From an uncultured Phycisphaerales bacterium (GTDB taxonomy: Bacteria > Planctomycetota > Phycisphaerae > Tepidisphaerales > Tepidisphaeraceae): a stretch of 64,000 bases of DNA. Position numbers and translations under genes: made by a program. The notes below the pieces were generated by a model. That model searched no databases, had not been told where the DNA came from, and saw only the letters and a program-made list of their open reading frames with translations. Below, one piece after another: positions 20,606 to 38,844 of this stretch. The number at the start of each line of letters is the position of its first letter. Position 1 is the first letter of the stretch. The DNA is taken from NCBI GenBank assembly GCA_963755915.1, contig CAVWLP010000002.1, forward strand, positions 2,176,001 to 2,240,000, in the 5' to 3' direction.

Positions 20606-21340
20606 TTAATTCTTCCGGTTCCCCAGAATCCGCAGCAGGAACAGGAACATATTGATGAAATCGAGGTAAAGGACCAGCGCCCCGACGATCGACATTCGTG
20701 CCGCCAGGGCGGAGTTGCCCCCGATGCTCAGGGCCATCTGGCGAAGCCGCTGCGTGTCGTAAGCCGTCAGCCCTGCGAAGATGATCACGCCCGCATAGGA
20801 GACCAGCCAGTAAAGCGCGCTGCTGGCGACGAAGATGTTGATGATGGAGGCCACGATCAGCCCGATCAGGGCCATGAACATAATCTTGCCCAGGCTGGTC
20901 AGATCGGTCTTCGTGACCATCCCATAGACGCTCATCACCGCGAACATCGACGCACAGGCGGCAAATGTGGCGCCGATGCTCGGCAGCGTATAAACCAGGA
21001 AAATGACTGACAGCATCAGCCCGTTGAGGGCTGCGAAGACGAGGAAGAGCAATGTGGCCATCGTGGCGTTGATGGCCCGGATCGCGCTGGAGATCACCAC
21101 GACCAGAACCAACTCGGCGATGAAGATCCCGATGGCCGCGCCGGGGCTCCTGACCGATTGCATCGCCGCCGGGTGCGTGTAGACGAGCCAGCCGACCACC
21201 GCGGTCAGGGCCAGCCCAACGGACATCCACGCGTAGACGGCATTGAAGAATTGGACCATCACGCCTTGGCCGGTGTAGTCCGCTTCGTAGTCCAGGGGCT
21301 GCGATCTGCCGGCCATTGGTTGGGGATTCCACATGCTCAT
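20606..21340 (-). CDS. Bax inhibitor-1/YccA family membrane protein
   Basis: About seven TM segments, TAYDTQ, LYLDFINMF. Confidence 0.9.
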   Translation of the reverse strand: MSMWNPQPMAGRSQPLDYEADYTGQGVMVQFFNAVYAWMSVGLALTAVVGWLVYTHPAAMQSVRSPGAAIGIFIAELVLVVVISSAIRAINATMATLLFLVFAALNGLMLSVIFLVYTLPSIGATFAACASMFAVMSVYGMVTKTDLTSLGKIMFMALIGLIVASIINIFVASSALYWLVSYAGVIIFAGLTAYDTQRLRQMALSIGGNSALAARMSIVGALVLYLDFINMFLFLLRILGNRKN

Positions 21341-21408: not shown

Positions 21409-21482
21409 CGCACCCGGCAGGATTCGAACCTGCGACCGGTGGATTAGAAATCCACTGCTCTATCCATCTGAGCTACGGGTGC
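21409..21482 (-). tRNA. tRNA-Arg(TCT)
   Basis: Reverse complement GCACCCGTAGCTCAG...GTGGAT-TTCTAA-TCCAC...GGTTCGAATCC...CGGGTGC. Confidence 0.93.
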
Positions 21483-27280: not shown

Positions 27281-28771
27281 ATGGAGCAATCGGATCTGCG
27301 GGTTCAAGCAACGGGCACGGCATTCGGGATTTTGCCGGTGAGCGGGCGCTCGCCGATCACGGTGATCGGCACGGAGGCGATCCGCGCGGGGTTTGACGCG
27401 AAATGCCTTCAGCAGGCGGTCAATTCCCGGCTGGCGCCGGGGGTGACGGAGCTGGTGCTGAATCCGGATGCGCATGCGGGGTATGGAGCGCCCGTTGGGT
27501 GCGTGATGGTTTCGCCGACGCATATTTATCCGGGGCCGGTGGGCGTGGACATCAAATGTTCGATGAGTTTGCTTCAGACCGATATTCCCGCCGATGCGGT
27601 GGCGGATCGAAAGATTCGCCGGGCGCTGATCGACGCGATTAGCCAGCGGCTTCCCACCGGGGCGGGGCGCGGGCAAAGGTCTGCGCCGAAGAGCCGGAAG
27701 ATCGGGCGCGAGGCGGGGATGAAAATCGTGGCGCAGGGCGCCAGCGAGGAAGTGTGCGAAGCGATCGGCATCCCGGCGGATTGGCCTTCGCGGTGCGAGG
27801 ACAGCCATCACCTGGGCCACGATGGCTCGGGGGATTCGCTGCTGCGCCGTCTGGAGCAGAACCTGCGCGGGCAGCAACTTTCGCTGTTCGATTCGAAGAT
27901 TTCGCAGCTTGGATCGTATGGCGGGGGGAACCATTTCGGAGAATGCGAGATCGTCTCGATTGAGGACGGCGAGGATGCCCGCGCGGTGGCCGAGGTGTTT
28001 GGACTGAAGGACAACTGCGTCGCCTTCCTCTCGCACTGCGGCTCGCGCGGGTTTGGGCATAACCTGGCGATGGGGCAGTTTCGCTCACTTCAAGATCATT
28101 TTTCGAAATGGACGATTCCGCTGCCTGGCAACGACCGCGAGCTGGTTTACGCCCCGCTGGGCACGCCCGAGGCGGATGCCTATCTTGACGACATGGCGCT
28201 GGGGGCGAACTTCGCCACGGTGAATCACATGCTGATCAACGCGCAGGTGCTGGAGGCTTTTCAGGAGGTGTTGCCGGGCACGAAAGGGACGCTGGTTTAT
28301 TTCATCAGCCACAACATCGCGCGGCAGGAGATCGTGGACAATCGTCTTGCATGGGTTCACCGCAAAGGGGCGACGCGCGCTTTTCCGGCACACCACCCCG
28401 GTTTGCGCGGGACGCCGTTCGAATCGACGGGGCATCCGATTCTTCTGCCGGGGAATCCGCGCGAAGGGAGCGTGATTATGGTCGCCGGCGAAGGGGCGGC
28501 GAAGAGCTGCTTTAGCGTCAACCACGGCGCCGGGCGGCGAATGGGCCGGAAAGACGCGATCCGCCGGCTGGATCAGGCGGCGATCGACAGTGAGCTGGAG
28601 GCTCATGATATTTTGAGCAATTGCCGGCAGTATCCGAAGGATGAAGCGCCGGATGCGTATAAGGACTTTTTTGAGGTGGTAAAGTCGGTGGAGCTTGCGG
28701 GGTTGGCGAAGCCGGTGGCACATTTGAAGGCCAGGTTCGTCATAAAGGATGGGGGAGAGGCGGATGATTGA
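27281..28771 (+). CDS. rtcB: RtcB-family RNA ligase
   Basis: PDAHAGYG, VGVDIKC, GGGNHF, HCGSRG, HRKGA, HGAGR, DEAPDAYK. Confidence 0.9.
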   Translation: MEQSDLRVQATGTAFGILPVSGRSPITVIGTEAIRAGFDAKCLQQAVNSRLAPGVTELVLNPDAHAGYGAPVGCVMVSPTHIYPGPVGVDIKCSMSLLQTDIPADAVADRKIRRALIDAISQRLPTGAGRGQRSAPKSRKIGREAGMKIVAQGASEEVCEAIGIPADWPSRCEDSHHLGHDGSGDSLLRRLEQNLRGQQLSLFDSKISQLGSYGGGNHFGECEIVSIEDGEDARAVAEVFGLKDNCVAFLSHCGSRGFGHNLAMGQFRSLQDHFSKWTIPLPGNDRELVYAPLGTPEADAYLDDMALGANFATVNHMLINAQVLEAFQEVLPGTKGTLVYFISHNIARQEIVDNRLAWVHRKGATRAFPAHHPGLRGTPFESTGHPILLPGNPREGSVIMVAGEGAAKSCFSVNHGAGRRMGRKDAIRRLDQAAIDSELEAHDILSNCRQYPKDEAPDAYKDFFEVVKSVELAGLAKPVAHLKARFVIKDGGEADD

Positions 28772-28800
28772 AGACGGTGACGGCTGAAAGCGACAGGGCC

Positions 28801-29835
28801 ATGTCCGAGGAGCTGCCGTGCCACGGCTGCGGATATGACCTTCGCGCCCATCCGGAGGAAGGGGTCCGCCCGGAGTGCGGGGCGTCAGTTGCCGAGGCGC
28901 GGCAATGGGCGGCGATTCCGCGTCGCCCGGCCTGGAATGAGAGCGACCCGCGATGGCGGCGGCGGATGCTTGCCGGGGTTTGGGTGCTGGTTCTGATCCC
29001 GCTGATGGATTTGCTCCAGAAGCTCGGATGGGCCTCGCTTGTGCCCGTGCCGACTTTCCTCAATAGCGGCCCCTTCAGCTTGGAGGAAACATTTTTGTGC
29101 AGTATGGGCGTGTATCCACTCATCCTCTTCTGTATTGGGACGGTATTGTTCTTCTCCAAAGAGCGCGGACACCGCCCGAGCCGATTGGATTGGACGCGTC
29201 GCTGGGGAATCATCTGCACTTACGTCGTGGCGCTGCTTAGCACCGCGATAACGCTCTTCATGCCGGCCCTGGTATTGGCGGGCATATCAGCCATCTTCAT
29301 GGCCATGCCGCTGAAATACCAGCCTGGCGTGACGCCATTGTTCGGTGAATTGGGCTGGATATACCTTCGCTACGGACCCCTTCCAAAGGGGATCACATAC
29401 TGCGTGCTGGTTACGTTTTCGTGGATGACGATTCTGCTGGCGTGCGTGCCGCTTTGGGAAGCGCTTTGCAGCAGCGGTTCGAAACGCTTCGCGAAAATTC
29501 TTCTTGCGCCGCTGGCTTTGTTCGCACTGATGAACATCGCCGAGGCCGGCTTGCTCGCAATTGGCTATTTACCATTGTCCCTGGCGGACCCGTTCTTCCG
29601 GCTCGGCCCATATTTCAGACCGGCTGCGCTCGTATGGAACACTGCCGGTTTCCGGTGGGCGCTTGGGTGGATTGTTACACCACAACCCGGACTAAACCTG
29701 ATTGCTGTCGAAGTTATCAAGTGGAGTATCATTTTTGCGATTGCCGTCGGGCTGAGCGTTGCGCAACTGGCGGCCTGGCGGAAAAAACGAACGGCGCGAC
29801 ATGCGAATAATGCCGGCGAAAGCCAAAAATGTTGA
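28801..29835 (+). CDS. Membrane protein with degenerate N-terminal Zn ribbon (paralog 1)
   Basis: CHGCGYDLR...RPECG followed by multiple TM segments. Confidence 0.75.
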   Translation: MSEELPCHGCGYDLRAHPEEGVRPECGASVAEARQWAAIPRRPAWNESDPRWRRRMLAGVWVLVLIPLMDLLQKLGWASLVPVPTFLNSGPFSLEETFLCSMGVYPLILFCIGTVLFFSKERGHRPSRLDWTRRWGIICTYVVALLSTAITLFMPALVLAGISAIFMAMPLKYQPGVTPLFGELGWIYLRYGPLPKGITYCVLVTFSWMTILLACVPLWEALCSSGSKRFAKILLAPLALFALMNIAEAGLLAIGYLPLSLADPFFRLGPYFRPAALVWNTAGFRWALGWIVTPQPGLNLIAVEVIKWSIIFAIAVGLSVAQLAAWRKKRTARHANNAGESQKC

Positions 29836-29892
29836 AGATCGATCCAAGAACCTTTACCCGGTTTCGCCTTGAAGGCTGACGCTGACAGCGCC

Positions 29893-30909
29893 ATGTCCGA
29901 TGAGCTGCTGTGCCACGGCTGCGGATATGACCTGCGCGCCCATCCAGAGGATGGGGTCTGCCCGGAGTGCGGGGCATCGGTTGCCGAGGCACGGCAATGG
30001 GCGGCGATTCCGCGTCGCCCGGCCTGGAAAGAGAGCGACCCGCGTTGGCGTCGGCGGATGCTTGCCGGCGTTTGGGTGCTGGCTCTGATACCACTGGTCG
30101 ATGTGCTGGAGAAGTTCGGATGGGCCTCGCTGGTGCCCGTGCCGAGTTTCTTTAATGATGGCCCGGCCACCTTGAACGAGACGTTTTTGTGCGCCGTGAA
30201 TGTGTATCCGCCGATCCTCTTCTGTATCGGGACGGTTTTGCTCTTCTCCAAAGAGCGGGGACGGCGTCCGAGCCGATTGGATTGGACCCGTCGCTGGGGG
30301 ATCATCTGCTGTTACGTCGTGGCGCTGCTCACCACCGCGCTGAAGCTCTTTCTGCCGGCGCTGGTAATGGCGGGTATATCAGCCCTCTTCATGGACATGC
30401 CGCCGAAAAACCAGCCGAGGGTGACGCAATTGTTTGTTGAGCTGAGTTGGAGATACCTTCGCTACGGACCGTATCCAAAGACGATCAATTACTGCGTACT
30501 GGATGCGTTCTCGTCGATGACGATTCTGCTGGCGTGCATGCCGCTTTGGGAGGCGCTTTGCAGCAGCGGCCTGAAACGGGTTGCGAGAATCCTGCTTGTG
30601 CCGCTGGTCCTGTTGGCACTGATGAACGTCGCGGAGGCTGGTTTGGTTGCGATTGGGTTTTCACCGTTGTTGGGGGCGGACCCGTTCTACCGGCTTGGGC
30701 CATATTTCAGGCCGGCGATCCTCGTGTGGAACACGACCGGGTATCCGTTGGGAATTATTCCACAACCCGGACTGGGCCTGTTTGTCGTCGAAGTTGCGAA
30801 GTGGAGTATTATTTTTGCGATCGCCGTGTGGCTGAGCGTTGCGCAACTGGTGGCGCGGCGCAACAAGGTCAACTCGGCTATTCTCAAACGGTCGGGTGCT
30901 GCGGCATAG
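29893..30909 (+). CDS. Membrane protein with N-terminal Zn ribbon (paralog 2)
   Basis: CHGCGYDLR...CPECG; collinear with paralog 1. Confidence 0.75.
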   Translation: MSDELLCHGCGYDLRAHPEDGVCPECGASVAEARQWAAIPRRPAWKESDPRWRRRMLAGVWVLALIPLVDVLEKFGWASLVPVPSFFNDGPATLNETFLCAVNVYPPILFCIGTVLLFSKERGRRPSRLDWTRRWGIICCYVVALLTTALKLFLPALVMAGISALFMDMPPKNQPRVTQLFVELSWRYLRYGPYPKTINYCVLDAFSSMTILLACMPLWEALCSSGLKRVARILLVPLVLLALMNVAEAGLVAIGFSPLLGADPFYRLGPYFRPAILVWNTTGYPLGIIPQPGLGLFVVEVAKWSIIFAIAVWLSVAQLVARRNKVNSAILKRSGAAA

Positions 30910-31045: not shown

Positions 31046-31063
31046 GGCCGAGTACCCAAGCGG
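31046..31063 (+). repeat. Left att core (copy of tRNA-Cys nt 1-18)
   Basis: Identical to 38727-38744. Confidence 0.9.
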
Positions 31064-31245
31064 GGTACGGGGAATCTCAAAAAACCTCGGAAAAACGGGG
31101 TGTCCCTGAATCTGCGGACCACCAGTTGGACCACGCCACGGGGAAAGGCAATGAACTGCAAGCGGTGATTGAGTTATGGGACAAGCTCCCGCAAGCCGCA
31201 CGGCAAGCAATTCTGGCAACGATCCGAGCGGCGAAGGGGAAATGA
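31063..31245 (+). other. Detached 3' segment of the integrase gene (60 codons plus stop)
   Basis: Open and in frame with the integrase across the att core: GYGESQK...ELQAVIELWDKLPQAARQAILATIRAAKGK*. Confidence 0.7.
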
Positions 31246-31248
31246 GCC

Positions 31249-31704
31249 GTGGGGTATACCGGACGCGAACGTGGCTCACTGACAGGCCAAGAGCTTGAGG
31301 TTAAAGAGGCCCTGCACTTCTATTACCCGGACATCAACTCCGATTCCCGAATCTGGACTCCACTGACCGTGCTGTATGCCGCATACCTACGGCATTGGCA
31401 AGCCTGCAAGAAACGCGGATGGCGACGTGAGTCGATGAATGGCGTGCTGCTGTCCCCGCCAGTTGATCCGAAGCCGTTACGGTTGAATCAATTTGGCCGG
31501 GTGATCCGCAGAGTGTTCCCGAATGCGAGCAAGGTCCGGCGAGTTGTGCGAGAGGCGGTCCGCACCCTGATTGCTGACGATCCACAACGGGTAACGCTTC
31601 GCACCCGATGGCGTGTCCGATGGGGTTACACACTGGCCGGGCCGATGGCACTCCATTCCCACACACCACGCGGCGGGAAACGGAAGAACACCACGCCCAT
31701 TTGA
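31249..31704 (+). CDS. Putative winged-helix DNA-binding protein (RFX-like)
   Basis: LYAAY...PL..NQFGRVIRRVFPN...RR...Y pattern; the real start may be ATG 31242 with a 1-nt indel. Confidence 0.5.
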   Translation: MGYTGRERGSLTGQELEVKEALHFYYPDINSDSRIWTPLTVLYAAYLRHWQACKKRGWRRESMNGVLLSPPVDPKPLRLNQFGRVIRRVFPNASKVRRVVREAVRTLIADDPQRVTLRTRWRVRWGYTLAGPMALHSHTPRGGKRKNTTPI

Positions 31705-31898
31705 TACGCGGATGAACCGCCCTCTCACGATGCTGTACTGATCCGTTGCGTTGAGTGAATGATTGATGCTGCGATGATGCACACAGTTGAGACGGGGGGT
31801 GATACCTTTTGATCGTCAAATGGGTCCCATCCACTACCTTCTATAGCCATCAGTCGCGTATATAAAATTTAGCCTTGACGATCTTGCGAATTCGATAT

Positions 31899-32426
31899 TC
31901 AGTTTGAATTTGATGGTTGAGCGGCATCGGATGCTGACGGCATATCAGCGAACGGAGATCGAGCGGCATTCGTATTCTTGTGGGCTTGATCGTCAAGATC
32001 GTCGAATACGTCCCGTTTGTGTGATGGAGCAACGGGTACAAGATCATTTGGAATTCCGGCATTGGCAGTGGATTGCTGGACCGGCCTAACAGCGATGTTC
32101 CATGAATCAAAGACCCCGCACTGATAGAGCGCGAAAAAAGTCGCAGCGATCAATATCGGAATGAGTGTGGCCAAGACAATGACCTTGTATCTCACGATCC
32201 ATCGCCAGACTGCTCCAATCACGCCCCACGTAACAATCAGAAACACAGCGGATGCGATAAACGCGAGTGCCACGTAAGCATTGAGCAGACTGGCAACATC
32301 CATATAGACATATCGTGTCGGCATGTCCCAACGTAGATAGTACGGCGGGGGATATAGAGCGATGAAACCTGCAATCGCGAATGTCGCGAGGATGATGGAC
32401 TTTTGAGTGGCGGTGAGCTTGTGCAT
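31899..32426 (-). CDS. Hypothetical membrane protein (element cargo)
   Basis: Three hydrophobic segments and a low-complexity tail. Confidence 0.6.
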   Translation of the reverse strand: MHKLTATQKSIILATFAIAGFIALYPPPYYLRWDMPTRYVYMDVASLLNAYVALAFIASAVFLIVTWGVIGAVWRWIVRYKVIVLATLIPILIAATFFALYQCGVFDSWNIAVRPVQQSTANAGIPNDLVPVAPSHKRDVFDDLDDQAHKNTNAARSPFADMPSASDAAQPSNSN

Positions 32427-32431
32427 AGTGA

Positions 32432-32629
32432 CTACGATTTGGGGAACGCTCGATCCAGTCCTTTGCGAGCGTTGGCCAGAATACCGCATATTTTGCACAG
32501 ACGCCTTTGGGTTCCCTTGCCCGACCTCCGATGTTCCGGTTTGATCTTTTGCCCCTCCCGACAATCAGTTCGATTGTGATACACGTTGTGGTGCAGCGGC
32601 TCAGGTAAGATCGTGCGATATTCGCCCAC
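32432..32629 (-). CDS. Small basic protein with HxxxxC...CxxC motif
   Basis: Strong purine-rich RBS (GGGGAG) before GTG; VYHNRTDCREGQKIK...RRLCKIC. Confidence 0.6.
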   Translation of the reverse strand: MGEYRTILPEPLHHNVYHNRTDCREGQKIKPEHRRSGKGTQRRLCKICGILANARKGLDRAFPKS

Positions 32630-33060
32630 GGTGCTCCCCCCTTTCAGCGGATGCCCCTTGCATCGTCCATCCGGGGTAAGCTCTTGAACGGAATGCTAGA
32701 TATGTAGGCACTCTGTACCCACACGGTCATGCCCCGGACTCCGCCCGGCCCGGCGTCGGTTTTATGGGCCAGTGCGATGGGGATGACGAATGGATCGTGG
32801 GAATGAATATTGCGGGTCATAGGGGGTGGGTGGTTTAATCATTGAGACTTGACGCGGCGTGACGATCCCCTCCTGCCTCCCTTCGCCCGGCCAAGTCCAT
32901 ACGTGTCACCCCCTGCTGACACTGCTGACGCTGACAATATCCCTTTTCCAGTCAACTGCGGGGGGATTTGTCAGCACTGTTTTTCAGATAGTGCCATTTG
33001 GCGCAACCTGTACTCGATTTGTGGAGTATATTCTGAGTGCGGGGACGCTGTTTCCGCTTC

Positions 33061-33666
33061 ATGGAGTTGCCGAAGATGCAGGATATTCCGAACAGTTACG
33101 AAGCCACCATCGTCCGCCTGGCACAGACGCGGCTTTCTGATCCGAAGCGAGTGATTGCCCCGCCCATGCCTGTAGATCGAGCAATGGTAATGGCGGGGAT
33201 GTTAGAAGTGGCGGGGATAGATTCAACCCCTGTCTTAACTCTGCGGCGTAAACCGATCACGAATGAAATGTGGGAGCGTGTTGAGGATGCCACGTTGCGA
33301 GCGGTGGCGAAGGGGCAAGCGTTGGTTGCCACACTCGCCGCGCCCGACACAGGGAAAATGCGGCGGGCGAAGTCCACAGTGAGAAAGGCCAATGGTTCGG
33401 GATTGACAGACGCCGAATGGGTTGGCCGTATTGGACCGCTGCTCTATCAAAATCCAAATATGCCGGTAAGGGAAATGGCATCGGCAATTCAGTGCGACCG
33501 CACCACCCTCTACAGGAAACTGCGGGCGATTCCGGTCTTGCAGAAAATGAGGCGCGCCATTTGTGAGCACGGAAATGATGTGGACGCCAATGAAGCCGCG
33601 AATACGGCACGACGGCAAAAGAGCAGTCGGATCGCCAGCCAGCGGAAGCAGAATGACGATTCGTAG
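33061..33666 (+). CDS. Putative regulator with C-terminal HTH
   Basis: MPVREMASAIQCDRTTLYRKL HTH-like segment. Confidence 0.6.
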   Translation: MELPKMQDIPNSYEATIVRLAQTRLSDPKRVIAPPMPVDRAMVMAGMLEVAGIDSTPVLTLRRKPITNEMWERVEDATLRAVAKGQALVATLAAPDTGKMRRAKSTVRKANGSGLTDAEWVGRIGPLLYQNPNMPVREMASAIQCDRTTLYRKLRAIPVLQKMRRAICEHGNDVDANEAANTARRQKSSRIASQRKQNDDS

Positions 33667-33704
33667 CCCCAACCACAAACCCAACCACATCTGAATTTCA
33701 AATT

Positions 33705-33728
33705 AGCCCCGGTTTCTCCGGGGTTTTT
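33705..33728 (+). terminator. Intrinsic terminator
   Basis: CCCCGG-TTTCT-CCGGGG followed by TTTTT. Confidence 0.6.
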
Positions 33729-33813
33729 CATTTCGTCAACCACGCCTTCAACCACAAATCCAGTGGGGGTGTGGGCCGTATCTAACTTGGCCATTTACTT
33801 TGGAGGGTCCGTC

Positions 33814-34044
33814 ATGACGTTCTTATCTACTCGACAAGTGGCTCGCCTGCTTGGTATCGAAATACACAAGCTGACGAATGCGTTGTGGACGGGCAAAGTA
33901 GTGCCGCCCCCCAAAAGCCCCAGCGGTTCATTTCTCTGGACGGCCCATGACACGCAAAGGGCATCCTGGGCATTACGGCATAGGTCTGCGGATTTCGAAT
34001 TGGGGGAAAGCGGTGCATTTGAACCGGAGGTTAAACATGAGTGA
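33814..34044 (+). CDS. Small MerR/excisionase-like DNA-binding protein
   Basis: GGAGG RBS; LSTRQVARLLGI...PPP.....FLWT. Confidence 0.6.
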   Translation: MTFLSTRQVARLLGIEIHKLTNALWTGKVVPPPKSPSGSFLWTAHDTQRASWALRHRSADFELGESGAFEPEVKHE

Positions 34045-34255
34045 TTCAACCGTTACGACGCCAGTGTTTGTGGACGCTGGGACAGCCGCGAAAATGCTGT
34101 CCATTTCAAAGCGGTCACTGTGGCGTATGGTCAGCGTCGGTCAGCTTCAACGAATTCGCTTCGGTCCAAAGATGATTCGGTTTCGTGTAGATGACCTGAA
34201 CAGGTTGGGTTCAATCAACGCCGAGCAATCCAATCAGCTTTGTGCAAAGCAGTAG
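34037..34255 (+). CDS. AlpA/excisionase-like HTH protein
   Basis: AAKMLSISKRSLWRMV..G.L..IRFG..IRFRVDDL; GGAGG RBS. Confidence 0.75.
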   Translation: MSDSTVTTPVFVDAGTAAKMLSISKRSLWRMVSVGQLQRIRFGPKMIRFRVDDLNRLGSINAEQSNQLCAKQ

Positions 34256-34267
34256 GAGAATGGGGTC

Positions 34268-36541
34268 ATGAGTACCGAACAATTAACGCCCGAAAAGATA
34301 GCCTATTTGAATGCAAGGTATCTTCATAAACGTAACGCTCCGATAATCCCCCCATTGCCGCCCCCGCCCCGTCGCCACCAATCATCGAATGTCGATGTTG
34401 TCTCTCATTTTGCGGGAGCCGTTAAGCGTGGCGAAAATGCGTGGCAGTGTCGATGCCCGGCCCACGACGATAACAAAGCCAGCCTTACCATCACTCAGAC
34501 CCCGGATAGGTGGTTGCTTCACTGTCACGCGGGATGCACGACCGAAGAAGTTTGCGATGCGGCTGGATTGAAGATGGCAGATTTGTTCTCTCGCCGCTGC
34601 ATCGTTGCGACTTACGATTACCGCAACGAATCGGGCACACTGCTCTATCAGGCCGTCCGTTTTGTCCCCAAAGATTTCCGGCAACGCCGGCCTGACGGGA
34701 AGGGCGGATGGCTTTACAATATGGATGGCGTGCGGCGTGTTCTCTATCGCTTGCCGGAATTGCTTGCCGCTGACTCATTGCTACCTGTATTCATTGTTGA
34801 AGGGGAACGCGATGCCGATCGCCTGCATTCTCTCAGTCTCACCGCAACATGCAACGTCGGCGGGGCTGGGAAATGGCGTAACGAATACAATGCCCCGTTC
34901 AAAGATCGGCGTGTCGTAATTATCGCGGACAGGGATGAGCCGGGTCGAAAACACGCAAAGCAAGTCGCGGCGTCATTGTCGGGGATCGCCGCTGAAATCA
35001 GAATCCTTGAATGCCCTGGCGACGGCGTGAAAGACGCCAGCGATTATTTTGACGCTGGTGGGACACGCGAATCACTGTTGGCGGAGATTGAGAGTCACCC
35101 GGCAACAATCAAGCTATCTGTACTTAAAGCCGTTGACGCATGGCATCGTTTTCCCACGGAATGGCTGCCCGATCCAGTCGCGCCGTTCATCCGTGAAACG
35201 GCAGCGGCTTTGGGGTGTGACGAAGCCTATATCGCGTTGCCATTATTGAGCGCCATCGCCTCCGCTGTTGGCAATACAAGGTGCATTCACTTGAAGGCAA
35301 AGTGGTACGAGTCAAGTGTGTTGTGGGCCGTGATAATTGCTGATTCTGGCACGCTTAAATCCCCGGCCATCGCGGCGGCCCTCGAATTCAGTTGGAAACG
35401 GCAGACACAGTTGCTTGAGAATTTCCGCAAAGAATACAACGCGTATGAGGCGGAGCTTGAGAGATGGAAAAACACGCCAAAGGCCGACCGAGTGGGCGAG
35501 CAACCTAAACCCCCCTCGCATTGCCAGCATGTGGTTTGCTCCGATATCACAATCGAAGCATTAGCAGATCGTTTGGACAAGACCCGTCGCGGCGTGCTGG
35601 TAGCAATAGATGAATTGTCCGGCTGGTTTGGTTCTTTCGGTCAGTACAAGGCGAGCCGTGGCAGTGATGTTCAACACTATCTCACCATGCACCGTGCCGG
35701 AAATTTGAAGGTCGATAGGAAACAAGGCGACCAGACAACCATTTACGTCCAGCGTGCGGCAGTGTGTCTCACCGGGACCATCCAACCTAAAATCCTCGCC
35801 CGCTGTTTAACACCTGAATTCTACGCGAACGGTTTAGCTGCCCGTCTTTTATTGGCGATGCCCCCACGGCAGGTAAAGCGGTGGACCGAAAATGAAATCA
35901 GCCCCGACACGCAACAGGCAATGGAGGCATTGTTCGATTCGCTCTTTGGGTTTCAGTTGGACGCGACACCATCGGTGCTAACCCTGACAAATGAGGCCAA
36001 GGGCGCGTGGATCGAATTCTATAACCAACATGCGCAGGAGGAAAACAAGTTGGCGGGGACTGAGCTTGGGGCTGCATGGAGCAAGCTGGAAGGCTATGCC
36101 GCCCGCCTGGCGATTGCGATTCACTCAATCCGCGAAGCAACAGGATCATTGGGGGCGTTCGCTAACACCGTCGATGAATACAGCATCGCCGCTGGCGTTG
36201 CACTTGCCCGATGGTTCGGCCATGAGACGGAACGTGTTTATACGCTCCTGCATGAATCGCCTGCCGAGCATTTGGCACGTGAGCTTGTCGATTGGATTCA
36301 ATCCGTGGGCGGGCGTGTCACTGCCCGCGAGCTTCAACGCCACAGTCGCAAATACCCAGACAGCCAATCGGCTGAAGCGGCATTGGATCAACTGGTCAAG
36401 ACCGGGTTGGGGAAGTGGGAGTTTTCCGTACCAGATGGACCGGGGGCCGGACGGCCTTCGGCGGCCTTTGTTCTGTCACCGCCTGGCACTTTACCATCCG
36501 TTGACGCTGACAATATTCACGATTCCCCAGGAAAAACGTAA
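34268..36541 (+). CDS. Primase-like replication protein (Zn finger, TOPRIM, DUF3987/YfjI-like domain)
   Basis: CPAHDD..SL...HCHAGC; IVEGERDAD and IIADRD (TOPRIM); SGTLKSP, DITIEAL, IDELSGW, GTIQP, GLAARL. Confidence 0.85.
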   Translation: MSTEQLTPEKIAYLNARYLHKRNAPIIPPLPPPPRRHQSSNVDVVSHFAGAVKRGENAWQCRCPAHDDNKASLTITQTPDRWLLHCHAGCTTEEVCDAAGLKMADLFSRRCIVATYDYRNESGTLLYQAVRFVPKDFRQRRPDGKGGWLYNMDGVRRVLYRLPELLAADSLLPVFIVEGERDADRLHSLSLTATCNVGGAGKWRNEYNAPFKDRRVVIIADRDEPGRKHAKQVAASLSGIAAEIRILECPGDGVKDASDYFDAGGTRESLLAEIESHPATIKLSVLKAVDAWHRFPTEWLPDPVAPFIRETAAALGCDEAYIALPLLSAIASAVGNTRCIHLKAKWYESSVLWAVIIADSGTLKSPAIAAALEFSWKRQTQLLENFRKEYNAYEAELERWKNTPKADRVGEQPKPPSHCQHVVCSDITIEALADRLDKTRRGVLVAIDELSGWFGSFGQYKASRGSDVQHYLTMHRAGNLKVDRKQGDQTTIYVQRAAVCLTGTIQPKILARCLTPEFYANGLAARLLLAMPPRQVKRWTENEISPDTQQAMEALFDSLFGFQLDATPSVLTLTNEAKGAWIEFYNQHAQEENKLAGTELGAAWSKLEGYAARLAIAIHSIREATGSLGAFANTVDEYSIAAGVALARWFGHETERVYTLLHESPAEHLARELVDWIQSVGGRVTARELQRHSRKYPDSQSAEAALDQLVKTGLGKWEFSVPDGPGAGRPSAAFVLSPPGTLPSVDADNIHDSPGKT

Positions 36542-36728
36542 TTGTGTCAGCGTCAGCAGGGGACAAAGGCATATTGAGCGGACCGAAGTATGGTCGGAAA
36601 AGATCGTCAAGTTAGATCGTCAAGGCAGTTGACCTTATGCCCGTAAATCGAGCGTGTGTTCGATTCGGGATTGAATGAAACCACAGGAGAGACCGCCACA
36701 GGAGTTTTTATAAAAGGCAGGTTCTCCA

Positions 36729-37085
36729 ATGAGCGATAGCGTAGATCGGAATATTTGTGGCAACGTGTACGTCGAAATCTCATCCATCGAGGCCGATGGA
36801 GTGCAGGTGGAGGTTGCGACCCGCGATGGAAAATCGCCGTTCACAATCCAGCCAACGGACGCGGATGGTGTTGCTGGCGAGATTGTCGAGGCACAAAGTT
36901 TCACCGTCTTAATCGACGGCACGAATAACGTGACTGATTTGGCTGATGCCCTGCATTGGCTGGCGGATCGCGTGAAGCAACTGCAAACGGTTTGCCTAGC
37001 CATCCACGAATGCCCGGCAGGCACGTTGGCATTAGTCAGGGACATTGAACGGAAAATCTGTAACGAGGATGGTTCGCAAGTTTGA
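36729..37085 (+). CDS. Hypothetical protein
   Basis: 118-aa acidic ORF in the element's forward gene run. Confidence 0.55.
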   Translation: MSDSVDRNICGNVYVEISSIEADGVQVEVATRDGKSPFTIQPTDADGVAGEIVEAQSFTVLIDGTNNVTDLADALHWLADRVKQLQTVCLAIHECPAGTLALVRDIERKICNEDGSQV

Positions 37086-37106
37086 ATCGTAACCGGAGAA
37101 AATGGC

Positions 37107-37379
37107 ATGAATGAATATCCAGACGAAAATGTGCTCCCCAATTTCATAAGAGCGAGTAAGCTGCCAAGGATTCTGGCAGAGTGGGCAGGGCTGAAAGTGA
37201 CAAGGCAGTCGGTGTGGAATTGGATGACCACCGGACGAAACGGCCACGTGCTACTCGCTACAAAACGTGTTGATCCCGGTAGACCCTCCGCAGAGATTTA
37301 CGTCGTGCGAAGGGATGACTTGTGCCAATTCCTGCGCGATGCGTTAGGTGTTCCAGTTGTAATAATCCGAAACGTATGA
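37107..37379 (+). CDS. Putative excisionase-like DNA-binding protein
   Basis: VTRQSVWNWMTTGRNG..L...RRDDLCQFL; directly upstream of the integrase. Confidence 0.6.
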   Translation: MNEYPDENVLPNFIRASKLPRILAEWAGLKVTRQSVWNWMTTGRNGHVLLATKRVDPGRPSAEIYVVRRDDLCQFLRDALGVPVVIIRNV

Positions 37380-37420
37380 TGCAATTGCGTGGTATATTGA
37401 TCGCAACGGGAGTAGATGCA

Positions 37421-38749
37421 ATGGCACACGTTTTTAAGATCGCGGGTCGTAATGGAAAGAAACTCGCCCACTGGTACGGCAAGGTTGCTGTTTCAGCAGA
37501 CAAGAGAATCCGCGTCAAGCTGTTCACCGATAAGACGGCCAGTGAACGCCGATTGATGGCGCTACAACAAGAGGCGGACCAGCGGGCATCCGGTGTGCGT
37601 ACCGTGGCGATGGATTACGCCCTGTTATCTGTTCAGCAGCACAGTAAGGATTACATGGCATCACTTATGCTTGAAAAGCGGGACGCTGATACGCTTCGCA
37701 TCGCTCAATGGACGATGGACAGACTTTTGGAGTGGGGCAAGTGGCAACGGATCGGCGATATCACTGCGGATAGCATGAGAAGCATTCTGACCACGCTGGA
37801 TCGACGGGGATTAACGCCAAGTTACCAGAATAAATTCATCATGCGAGTCAAGGCGTTTGTCCATTGGTTACAACGTGAGGGAAGAATCACCGCGAATCCG
37901 CTGGCCAATCTGAAACGAGTTGATGAACGCAATGGAAAGCGGACGCGGGCGAGGAGAGCATTGACCGATCCTGAATCATCCGCTTTGCTTTTGAATACCA
38001 CGGAAGATCGGCGAGAGAAATACGCATGGGCCCTGCTGGCCGGACTTCGGCGGTCTGAGTTGAAAGAGTTGCGGTGGGGCGATCTTCGCTTGAATGCTCC
38101 CCGGCCATTCATCCAATTGCGACCAGAACAAACTAAAAACGGCAAAGCCGACGCATTGCCCATCCATCCGTATTTGCTCAAGCTGATTCAACAGCGAACG
38201 CCCGGAATGCCTGATACCTGCGTCGTTTCAACCGTGCCGGATATGAAAACGATGGTGAAGGATTTGAACCGAGCCGGCGTAGTGTTAGCCGATGCAAAGG
38301 GACGGCGGGCGGATTTCCACGCCTTGCGTCACACGTATTGCACTAATTTGGATCGCACGGGATGCAGCTACACCACCAAACGAGCGTTGATGCGGCACTC
38401 TGACAGTGGAGTCACCGAAGGTTATTCACACGCCCGGCTTGATGAGCTATACGCCGCAATTGAACGTCTACCGTCGCCTGGCAACGATGAGCGAAGCACC
38501 GCGATCCGCACTGGAACAGATGATAAAGCGTTGGACCACCTGTTGGACCAAAACATGGTCATTTCTGGTCCAACGGGGGCACCAACTGGCACAGAATCGC
38601 AGACAAACCATGACACTTGCCCCGATGAGGATAGGAGATATAATCCGAGTGCTGACACTGATTTGCACTCATTGGCACTAGCTGGCGTTGGGGGTTCCGA
38701 TGAGGGTATTTCGAGTGTCGATTTAGGGCCGAGTACCCAAGCGGACTAA
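37421..38749 (+). CDS. Tyrosine integrase
   Basis: GLRRSEL (R), TKNG (K), FHALRHT (HxxR), MRHS (H), TEGYSH (Y); the stop codon lies inside tRNA-Cys. Confidence 0.93.
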   Translation: MAHVFKIAGRNGKKLAHWYGKVAVSADKRIRVKLFTDKTASERRLMALQQEADQRASGVRTVAMDYALLSVQQHSKDYMASLMLEKRDADTLRIAQWTMDRLLEWGKWQRIGDITADSMRSILTTLDRRGLTPSYQNKFIMRVKAFVHWLQREGRITANPLANLKRVDERNGKRTRARRALTDPESSALLLNTTEDRREKYAWALLAGLRRSELKELRWGDLRLNAPRPFIQLRPEQTKNGKADALPIHPYLLKLIQQRTPGMPDTCVVSTVPDMKTMVKDLNRAGVVLADAKGRRADFHALRHTYCTNLDRTGCSYTTKRALMRHSDSGVTEGYSHARLDELYAAIERLPSPGNDERSTAIRTGTDDKALDHLLDQNMVISGPTGAPTGTESQTNHDTCPDEDRRYNPSADTDLHSLALAGVGGSDEGISSVDLGPSTQAD

Positions 38750-38800
38750 GGGGACGGATTGCAAATCCGTTATTCGTCGGTTCGAATCCGACCTCGGCCT
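38727..38800 (+). tRNA. tRNA-Cys(GCA)
   Basis: GGCCGAG/CTCGGCC acceptor stem, ACGGA-TTGCAAA-TCCGT anticodon arm, GGTTCGAATCC, U discriminator. Confidence 0.93.
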
Positions 38801-38844
38801 TTCTCTTAATTCCCGCGGATCTCTCAATCCAGGCCCTCATTTCC

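Follow-up and report, generated by a model that had tools for sequence, protein, structure and literature searches.

An integrase gene that appears to hold its own attachment site and to lose its C-terminal tail on integration into tRNA-Cys, in an uncultured Phycisphaerales bacterium and in related elements

We analysed a stretch of 64,000 nucleotides (the window) from an uncultured Phycisphaerales bacterium of the family Tepidisphaeraceae, Planctomycetota (GenBank assembly GCA_963755915.1, contig CAVWLP010000002.1, positions 2,176,001 to 2,240,000 of the forward strand). The window contains a 7,681-bp insertion, spanning 31046-38744 and bounded by exact 18-bp direct repeats (GGCCGAGTACCCAAGCGG), at the 5' end of a tRNA-Cys gene. 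The integrase gene (int) of this element runs through one repeat and ends inside the tRNA gene, and a continuation of its reading frame lies beyond the other repeat, at the opposite end of the element. The attachment (att) sites, the integrase with its tail, and the signals proposed to lie within the gene are the following.

31046..31063, + strand: attL core, a displaced copy of tRNA-Cys positions 1-18 (exact 18-bp repeat; empty site in G205, a genome of the same genus)
31063..31245, + strand: stranded C-terminal tail of the integrase, 60 codons (31063-31242) and the stop TGA (31243-31245), in frame across the core
31064..31073, + strand: tRNA-like bases beyond the core, GGTACGGGGA against ACTAAGGGGA in the tRNA, with the in-frame TAA of the tRNA changed to TAC
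31116..31133, + strand: P' arm-type repeats, GGACCA and then, 12 nt on, TTGGACCA; read as the peptide DHQLDH
31150..31242, + strand: conserved helical-hairpin motif of the tail (NELQAVIELWDKLPQAARQAILATIRAAKGK), from an alignment of tails (A3), matches to a hidden Markov model (HMM) and the model of a homologue
37421..38749, + strand: integrase gene in its integrated, short form, 442 residues (open reading frame (ORF) call; PF00589; phrog_1 integrase)
38024..38437, + strand: catalytic domain of the integrase, residues 202-339 (PF00589, E 1.3e-14)
38477..38726, + strand: linker of the integrase, proposed to be the P arm of the attachment site of the free element (attP), from the integrase consensus A1, a DNA alignment and the homologue model
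38531..38573, + strand: P arm-type repeats, two copies of TTGGACCA 12 nt apart (38531, 38543) and an inverted third (38566); translated as DHLLDQ
38617..38644, + strand: promoter-like site TTGCCC-16-TATAAT in the linker, 83 nt upstream of tRNA position 1
38727..38744, + strand: attR core (exact 18-bp direct repeat)
38727..38800, + strand: reconstituted tRNA-Cys(GCA), delimited by acceptor-stem pairing (38726-38801 as called by ARAGORN)

The attR copy of the repeat is exactly tRNA-Cys positions 1-18, and when the repeat is extended to 28 nt, 25 of the 28 positions are identical between the attL and attR sides. The G+C content inside the element is below that of its surroundings. In G205, the left flank of the window (90.8% identity) directly adjoins an intact tRNA-Cys. 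As this is the empty site, the window element is a precise 7,681-bp insertion. The conclusions drawn here make no use of G218, an unpublished genome. With an intact tRNA gene at one end, a displaced 5' fragment at the other and an integrase gene inside, the window element belongs to the islands in tRNA genes (tDNA) that carry a 5' fragment, a class that accounts for 159 of the 3,919 islands of Islander.

The integrase ORF reads through the core, ends in ..GPSTQAD and stops at TAA 38747-38749, in the D-loop of tRNA-Cys. Its product belongs to the tyrosine recombinases (PF00589) and has their R..HxxR..H/W..Y residues, with R210/R211, H300, R303, H326 and Y335 invariant or nearly so among 30 homologues. 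All of these lie N-terminal to the core, thus the catalytic residues are retained in the integrated form. The tail at the other end has no ATG of its own, and in the chromosomal flank its frame is closed by a stop codon, 10 codons before the core. An earlier, sequence-only reading of this locus had described the frame running through the 18-bp core into the tRNA gene, 60 further open codons at 31063-31242, and catalytic residues that stay in the integrated form. The ORF and tRNA calls agree with the first point, the peptide of the tail was recovered exactly as noted, with its stop TGA now placed at 31243-31245, and the positions of the catalytic residues bear out the third. The same reading had also attached meaning to an overlap of the tail's stop with an ATG (ATGA). 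This ATG (31242-31244) opens only 18 codons and the next ORF starts from GTG 31249 in another frame, so we rejected translational coupling at this place.

Among 106 homologues from the databases, 42 end in P[SD]TQ[AV][DV] and three more in close variants of it, which is the 5' end of tRNA-Cys translated in the same frame as in the window. Another ten of the 106 have RSS[VG]G as their last residues, which corresponds to the 5' end of a different tRNA. In more distant homologues, the terminal peptide is a tRNA 3' half read in antisense.

We gathered 160 related loci from genomes and metagenomes with an alignment query; a single-protein query had found none. In 159 of these loci the integrase match reached the catalytic tyrosine. 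The integrase ORF stops within a tRNA gene in 95 of the 159, in seven cases in sense at the 5' end and in 88 in antisense at the 3' end. Of the remainder, 54 have no such stop by the criterion used, and in 10 the ORF reaches the end of the contig. For 54 of the 95 loci, 3 kb or more of sequence was at hand upstream, and 15 of these 54 could be delimited by a direct repeat of at least 14 bp (18-50 bp). Beyond the core, each of the 15 has 53-98 further open codons in the integrase frame, which is always the longest of the three, and 12 of the 15 tails carry a W..L(P) motif.

The genome of the window (G000) contains five elements of the family, in tRNA-Cys, tRNA-Val, tRNA-Met, tRNA-Gly and one unnamed 5' fragment, all five of them in frame. 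The four further ones, each with the integrase gene split from an in-frame tail, lie at these positions.

G000:C2:3529165-3538801: family element, integrase split from in-frame tail
G000:C2:3019505-3031062: family element, integrase split from in-frame tail
G000:C2:3918132-3934144: family element, integrase split from in-frame tail
G000:C3:160176-170465: family element, integrase split from in-frame tail

The right junction of the first of these is followed by sequence that is not tRNA-like, and ARAGORN called no tRNA there.

For four relatives that target tRNA-Cys (G001-G004), the second copy of the core was located in the whole genome. In two of them, G001 (22.8 kb) and G003 (16 kb), the tail is in frame and open. 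Altogether, 22 of the 24 elements that could be delimited have a frame that stays open over the core, with at least 12 different tRNA cores and in both orientations. At a chance of 1/3 per distinct core, the odds of such an outcome are about 1 in 500,000 or less; kin are not independent, and therefore only distinct cores were counted. Judged from the sequences compared, frame continuity is not a matter of chance. The comparison demonstrates a long reading frame that is evidently under selection, and an arrangement that is family-wide. Random frames of the distal segments relative to the integrase, which the sequence-only reading had named as a refutation, were thus not found.

Most family tails end in a conserved, helix-turn-helix-like hairpin with the pattern W..LP...R.AIL. 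Two residues, W44 and L47, are the same in all 22 tails of the A3 alignment. A full-library HMMER search (phmmer) with a 65-residue tail as query matched 12 proteins. Two are unrelated repeat proteins, and the other ten are short ORFs of 74-125 residues that carry the core peptide, a DHxLD stretch and W..LP...R.AIL. These ten are stranded tails or attP fragments which gene callers have named as orphans, a fate that had been foreseen for the tail in the window; likewise, the peptide proposed for searching turned out, in related genomes and in protein searches, to be the conserved motif of the family. One of the proteins matched by phmmer, P0117 (86 residues), has two tandem copies of the tail motif. 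A word-index search with the tail for longer proteins gave none, which marks the sensitivity limit of that search, according to the later full-library HMMER search and local HMMs.

A local HMM of the 30-residue motif gave 26 matches in 24 loci, all on the integrase strand, with about 20 upstream of the integrase, three contiguous with it and two weak ones downstream. Of 201 genomes sampled from the phylum, 28 have the tail profile, and 27 of 171 genera are represented among them. Differences within the motif are distributed over the three codon positions as 4510/3429/6038, the third position being the most variable, and in close pairs the proportion of nonsynonymous differences (pN) is below that of synonymous ones (pS), for example 0.19 vs 0.69.

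The DNA around the core appears to serve as attP while it is read as protein. The change from TAA to TAC on the element side of the core is also present in G003, and in G001 it is the sole difference within 28 nt. An element in tRNA-Arg (L010) has CAA on its side in place of TAG. Such changes of the tRNA's in-frame stop directly attest to selection for a frame that stays open through the core. Candidate arm sites flank the core. The word TTGGACCA occurs five times in the 64-kb window against 1.55 expected, and four of the five copies are within the arms. In 13 of 16 elements, a single 7-mer has two copies in each arm, about 12 nt apart and mostly in one orientation; the P-arm pair lies 125-205 nt ahead of the core and the P'-arm pair 38-77 nt beyond it. 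The fifth copy of TTGGACCA in the window, at 21251-21258 and about 150 nt from a tRNA-Arg(TCT) gene (21409-21482), may be fortuitous or left over from another element.

Integration at the 5' end parts a tRNA gene from its native upstream region, which in the window now lies at attL. The promoter-like site in the linker may therefore drive the tRNA, and we propose 38617-38644 as a candidate replacement promoter for tRNA-Cys. Both hexamers are kept in three other loci (L008, L089 and L012), and they show as a C......YN peptide in the integrase consensus. This differs from most tDNA islands, where the recombinant tRNA almost always keeps its own promoter according to reviews; here, the native tRNA upstream is displaced to attL and the promoter-like site lies in the linker of the integrase. 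The idea that this tRNA-Cys is the only one of the genome was rejected, as ARAGORN called four.

As a protein, the linker is poorly conserved except over DNA signals, and much of its apparent peptide conservation is due to the tRNA core, the arm repeats and the promoter hexamers. A short (R/K)TGT(D) peptide that directly follows the catalytic domain (TGTD in the window, at about 38510-38525) is kept in both the sense and the antisense branches.

The long form is also found as one contiguous gene. Four database proteins (P0008, P0013, P0048 and P0056) have the core peptide internally, followed by a tail, which in P0013 and P0048 has the full motif. The integrase and tail are contiguous at locus L140 and again at L152, where the tail recurs in an identical copy 6.3 kb upstream, the pattern that a tandem array would give. 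Contiguous long integrases of 528 and 573 residues are encoded on two viral contigs, L169 (49 kb) and L188 (43 kb). In both, a primase/helicase or helicase gene lies upstream of the integrase and a large terminase gene 4-6 kb downstream, and no tRNA gene was called at the end of the long integrase ORF. This layout is the free-phage configuration. The contiguous genes in phage contigs and metagenome proteins, along with the 22 of 24 elements in frame, uphold the earlier proposal that excision or circularisation restores a longer integrase.

For the structure we turned to the natural long integrase of L152, whose AlphaFold model has a mean predicted local distance difference test score (pLDDT) of 77.8, and on which the helical nature proposed for the window tail rests. 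In the model, an N-terminal unit of three strands and a helix is followed by the core-binding domain and, as far as residue 349, the catalytic domain. The stretch 350-464 is disordered (pLDDT <50), and two terminal helices (477-488 and 491-504, pLDDT about 88) cover the motif. By structure, the model matches full-length lambda Int best (1z1b_A, E 2.5e-11, 368 columns), with the N-terminal domain included in the match. Two observations bear on a lambda type, namely the N-terminal unit, seen in the model of this 26%-identical homologue, and the paired repeats of both arms, which are present in the window and in 13 of the 16 elements. The window integrase is predicted to be a lambda-type tyrosine recombinase with putative arm-type sites. 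Unlike here, attP of lambda lies outside int, and lambda Int has neither a long disordered linker nor a terminal hairpin.

Between the tail and the integrase gene, the element encodes the following genes; the rest of its cargo consists of small ORFs without known family.

31249..31704, + strand: ORF of 151 residues (ORF151) without family match, GTG start at 31249, in a frame other than that of the tail
33947..34255, + strand: excisionase-like HTH_17 protein, a candidate directionality factor (PF12728, E 7e-6; phrog_66)
34268..36541, + strand: primase/helicase (Toprim and DUF3987; family matches)

A 732-bp block of the window (31153-31884), covering the tail motif and ORF151, is 97.1% identical to G000:C2:3529275-3530006 in a second element of the same genome. 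The integrases of these two elements are only about 30% identical and their att cores differ. Such a contrast suggests that the module was exchanged recently, with its breakpoint where the conserved motif begins. ORF151 occurs in these two elements of the genome and in no other locus; its role as a general partner of the tail was rejected for this reason. A loose contig end at 31189 was traced to the second of these elements.

A 13-nt word, GCTGACGCTGACA, is found at 32924-32936, 36500-36512, 36547-36559 (inverted) and 29875-29887. It forms an inverted pair just 3' of the primase/helicase gene, and one copy lies outside the element. These repeats may be an origin or an operator. To the left of the element lie two tandem paralogues, at 28768-29835 (355 residues) and 29869-30909 (346 residues), with about 82% DNA identity. 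Their products are polytopic membrane proteins with a zinc-ribbon-like CxxC...C start at the N-terminus. G205 has a single copy in place of this pair; there, the distance from tRNA-Cys to the homologue of the right-flank gene is about 1.4 kb (L242), against about 60 nt in the window.

The closest parallels to the split integrase gene are found in Myxococcus phages and in archaeal viruses, and both precedents named by the sequence-only reading, Mx8 and SSV1, are confirmed in print. In phage Mx8, according to a review, attP lies in int, and integration makes a new 3' end of int and modifies the specificity of the enzyme. As with IntP and IntX of Mx8, a pair reported for Mx9 as well, attP in the window lies within int and downstream of the catalytic domain, and integration into a tRNA gene swaps the C-terminus for a shorter 3' end while the catalytic domain stays intact. 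The sequence of Mx8 IntP shows a catalytic domain, followed by an antisense peptide of the tRNA T-arm and a tail of about 110 residues. The Mx8 precedent reportedly dates from 1996, and in work attributed to Magrini et al. 1999, IntX is said to be less active and to limit excision. The differences are that the tail of Mx8 is longer, with no W..LP motif noticed on reading its sequence, and that Mx8 uses the 3' end of tRNA-Asp in antisense, the window element the 5' end of tRNA-Cys in sense. Beyond the recombinase fold, we found no homology to Mx8 IntP (BLASTP E 0.07; outside the 25 best of 118 phage records by tblastn).

The integrases of the SSV1 type, found in archaea, also have the att site within int, and integration partitions the gene. 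For these 'suicidal' integrases the split is expected to inactivate the enzyme, and a 2021 review called the type exclusively archaeal. In the window, only the C-terminal hairpin is lost, and the catalytic, core-binding and N-terminal domains stay together; the integrated gene can still encode a complete catalytic protein, which sets it apart from the SSV type. The only bacterial cases that we found in print are Mx8 and Mx9, whereas here the layout is family-wide. The open-access literature searched yielded no case from planctomycetes or the Planctomycetes-Verrucomicrobia-Chlamydiae (PVC) group, no tail motif and no family-wide pattern.

We consider it quite probable that the window holds a 7.7-kb element in the 5' end of tRNA-Cys, whose integrase gene contains the whole attP and whose integration trims the tail. 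The whole gene would encode, in this order, the catalytic domain, a disordered linker of about 85 residues that is also the P arm, the 18-bp core, the P' arm and the hairpin. Two arm-type repeats and the promoter-like site would lie in the P arm, two more repeats in the P' arm of about 30 codons, and the hairpin would take up about 30 residues. In the circular, free or tandem state, int is whole and encodes about 500 residues. Integration replaces the last 60 residues with a single one (D) and the tRNA's own stop, with the catalytic residues kept. By analogy with Mx8 IntP and IntX, the long form would be the efficient integrating enzyme and the short form of the prophage less active or differently specific, and the integrated state would be stabilised by this. 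Excision would still take place via the excisionase-like protein, and the promoter-like site in the linker would drive the tRNA that was cut off from its native promoter. The predicted isoform switch itself is well supported by the reading frames; for the difference in activity and its stabilising effect, which are suggested by the analogy, we see roughly even chances.

A number of observations weigh against this interpretation, in whole or in part. Three of the 15 delimited tails are without the motif, and 39 of the 54 loci with sufficient flank showed no repeat in the part fetched and were left unscored, their elements being longer than the 10-kb flank (three later proved so) or their repeats shorter than 14 bp. 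Among the tRNA-Cys relatives, G004 has a tail in the same frame, but its attL keeps the TAA of the tRNA and its integrase stops before the core, which indicates a decayed element. In G002 only a remnant was found, on another contig and without a tail. The overall pN/pS of the motif is only 0.63, a weak value because the synonymous sites are near saturation. A protein 85% identical to the window integrase (P0002) has an unrelated, Arg-rich end of 65 residues after the core, which may represent a junction at another site. Contigs from four soil-metagenome runs of one study span attL and attR, as in the integrated form, but show no circle junction or excised form; this absence is uninformative, as contigs drop rare variants.

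Two parts of the mechanism are affected more specifically. The promoter hexamers are present in only four of the eight aligned sense-type loci, the window included, and with three tRNA-Cys genes in the genome besides this one, a replacement promoter is not strictly required. The near-identical block shared by two elements with integrases of about 30% identity indicates that the hairpin is exchangeable, and not tightly co-adapted to one catalytic core. Furthermore, since the catalytic residues are kept and an excisionase-like gene is present, ordinary control by a directionality factor could suffice.

The tail could also be a constitutive part of the enzyme and not a switch. The short form of the prophage would then be essentially inactive, a bacterial counterpart of the 'suicidal' integrases, whose logic is published, and the element could be excised only with a complete integrase supplied by a tandem copy, a circle or a related element. 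Tandem arrays that rebuild a whole int do exist, as in L152, and several related elements occur together in one genome; the conservation of the motif across phyla would fit a constitutive part as well. Yet the short form keeps all catalytic residues together with the N-terminal and core-binding domains, and many viral homologues end soon after the catalytic domain, without any tail. The truncated form of Mx8 also stays active, according to the review. We regard a constitutive tail as unlikely.

Less credible still is that the tail does not belong to the integrase at all, and is either an independent small gene at the left end or a set of attP DNA signals, with an incidental continuity of frame. 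Gene callers do predict short stand-alone ORFs at this place, but in the window the tail has no start codon of its own. Much of the peptide conservation in the linker is indeed DNA signal, whereas in the motif it is the third codon position that varies most. The motif block has travelled between two elements with the downstream ORF151, but ORF151 is absent from all other loci. An incidental frame is also hard to reconcile with the open, in-frame tails of 22 of the 24 delimited elements, which span at least 12 tRNA cores, with the specific removal of the tRNA stop codon, or with the contiguous genes in phage contigs.

With the tail as an integration-trimmed part of the integrase, a wider interpretation can be put forward tentatively, and we hold it to be possible rather than probable. 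Isoform switching with recombination may be a selected, ancestral control of a large integrase clade in Planctomycetota, Verrucomicrobiota and their kin, and the hairpin an integration-specific module. The hairpin would effectively be a directionality factor which is covalently attached only while the element is circular. One stretch of 280 bp would then be linker, recombination site with four arm sites and stop-edited tRNA fragment at the same time, and in the 5'-targeting branch also the promoter that takes over the host tRNA gene.

This is no new principle, given the precedent of Mx8, but a new and much broader variant of it in an unrelated, widespread integrase family. New are the conserved terminal module, the attP that appears to lie wholly in coding sequence, the tRNA stop that is edited out, and the 5'-targeting branch with its candidate promoter.

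For annotation, this means that integrases of the family are called truncated and their tails orphan ORFs, as in the ten cases found here. For island finders, an integrase that runs into a tRNA gene, combined with a tail motif further upstream on the int strand, could mark the boundaries precisely. The peptide motifs of the linker, as shadows of DNA signals, call for caution in conservation-based domain calling. How a tyrosine integrase tells integration from excision would become testable in a new system, with a C-terminal module that is easily mutated. Integration that rewrites its own integrase gene, hitherto a curiosity of Mx8 and archaeal fuselloviruses, is the rule in this widespread family.

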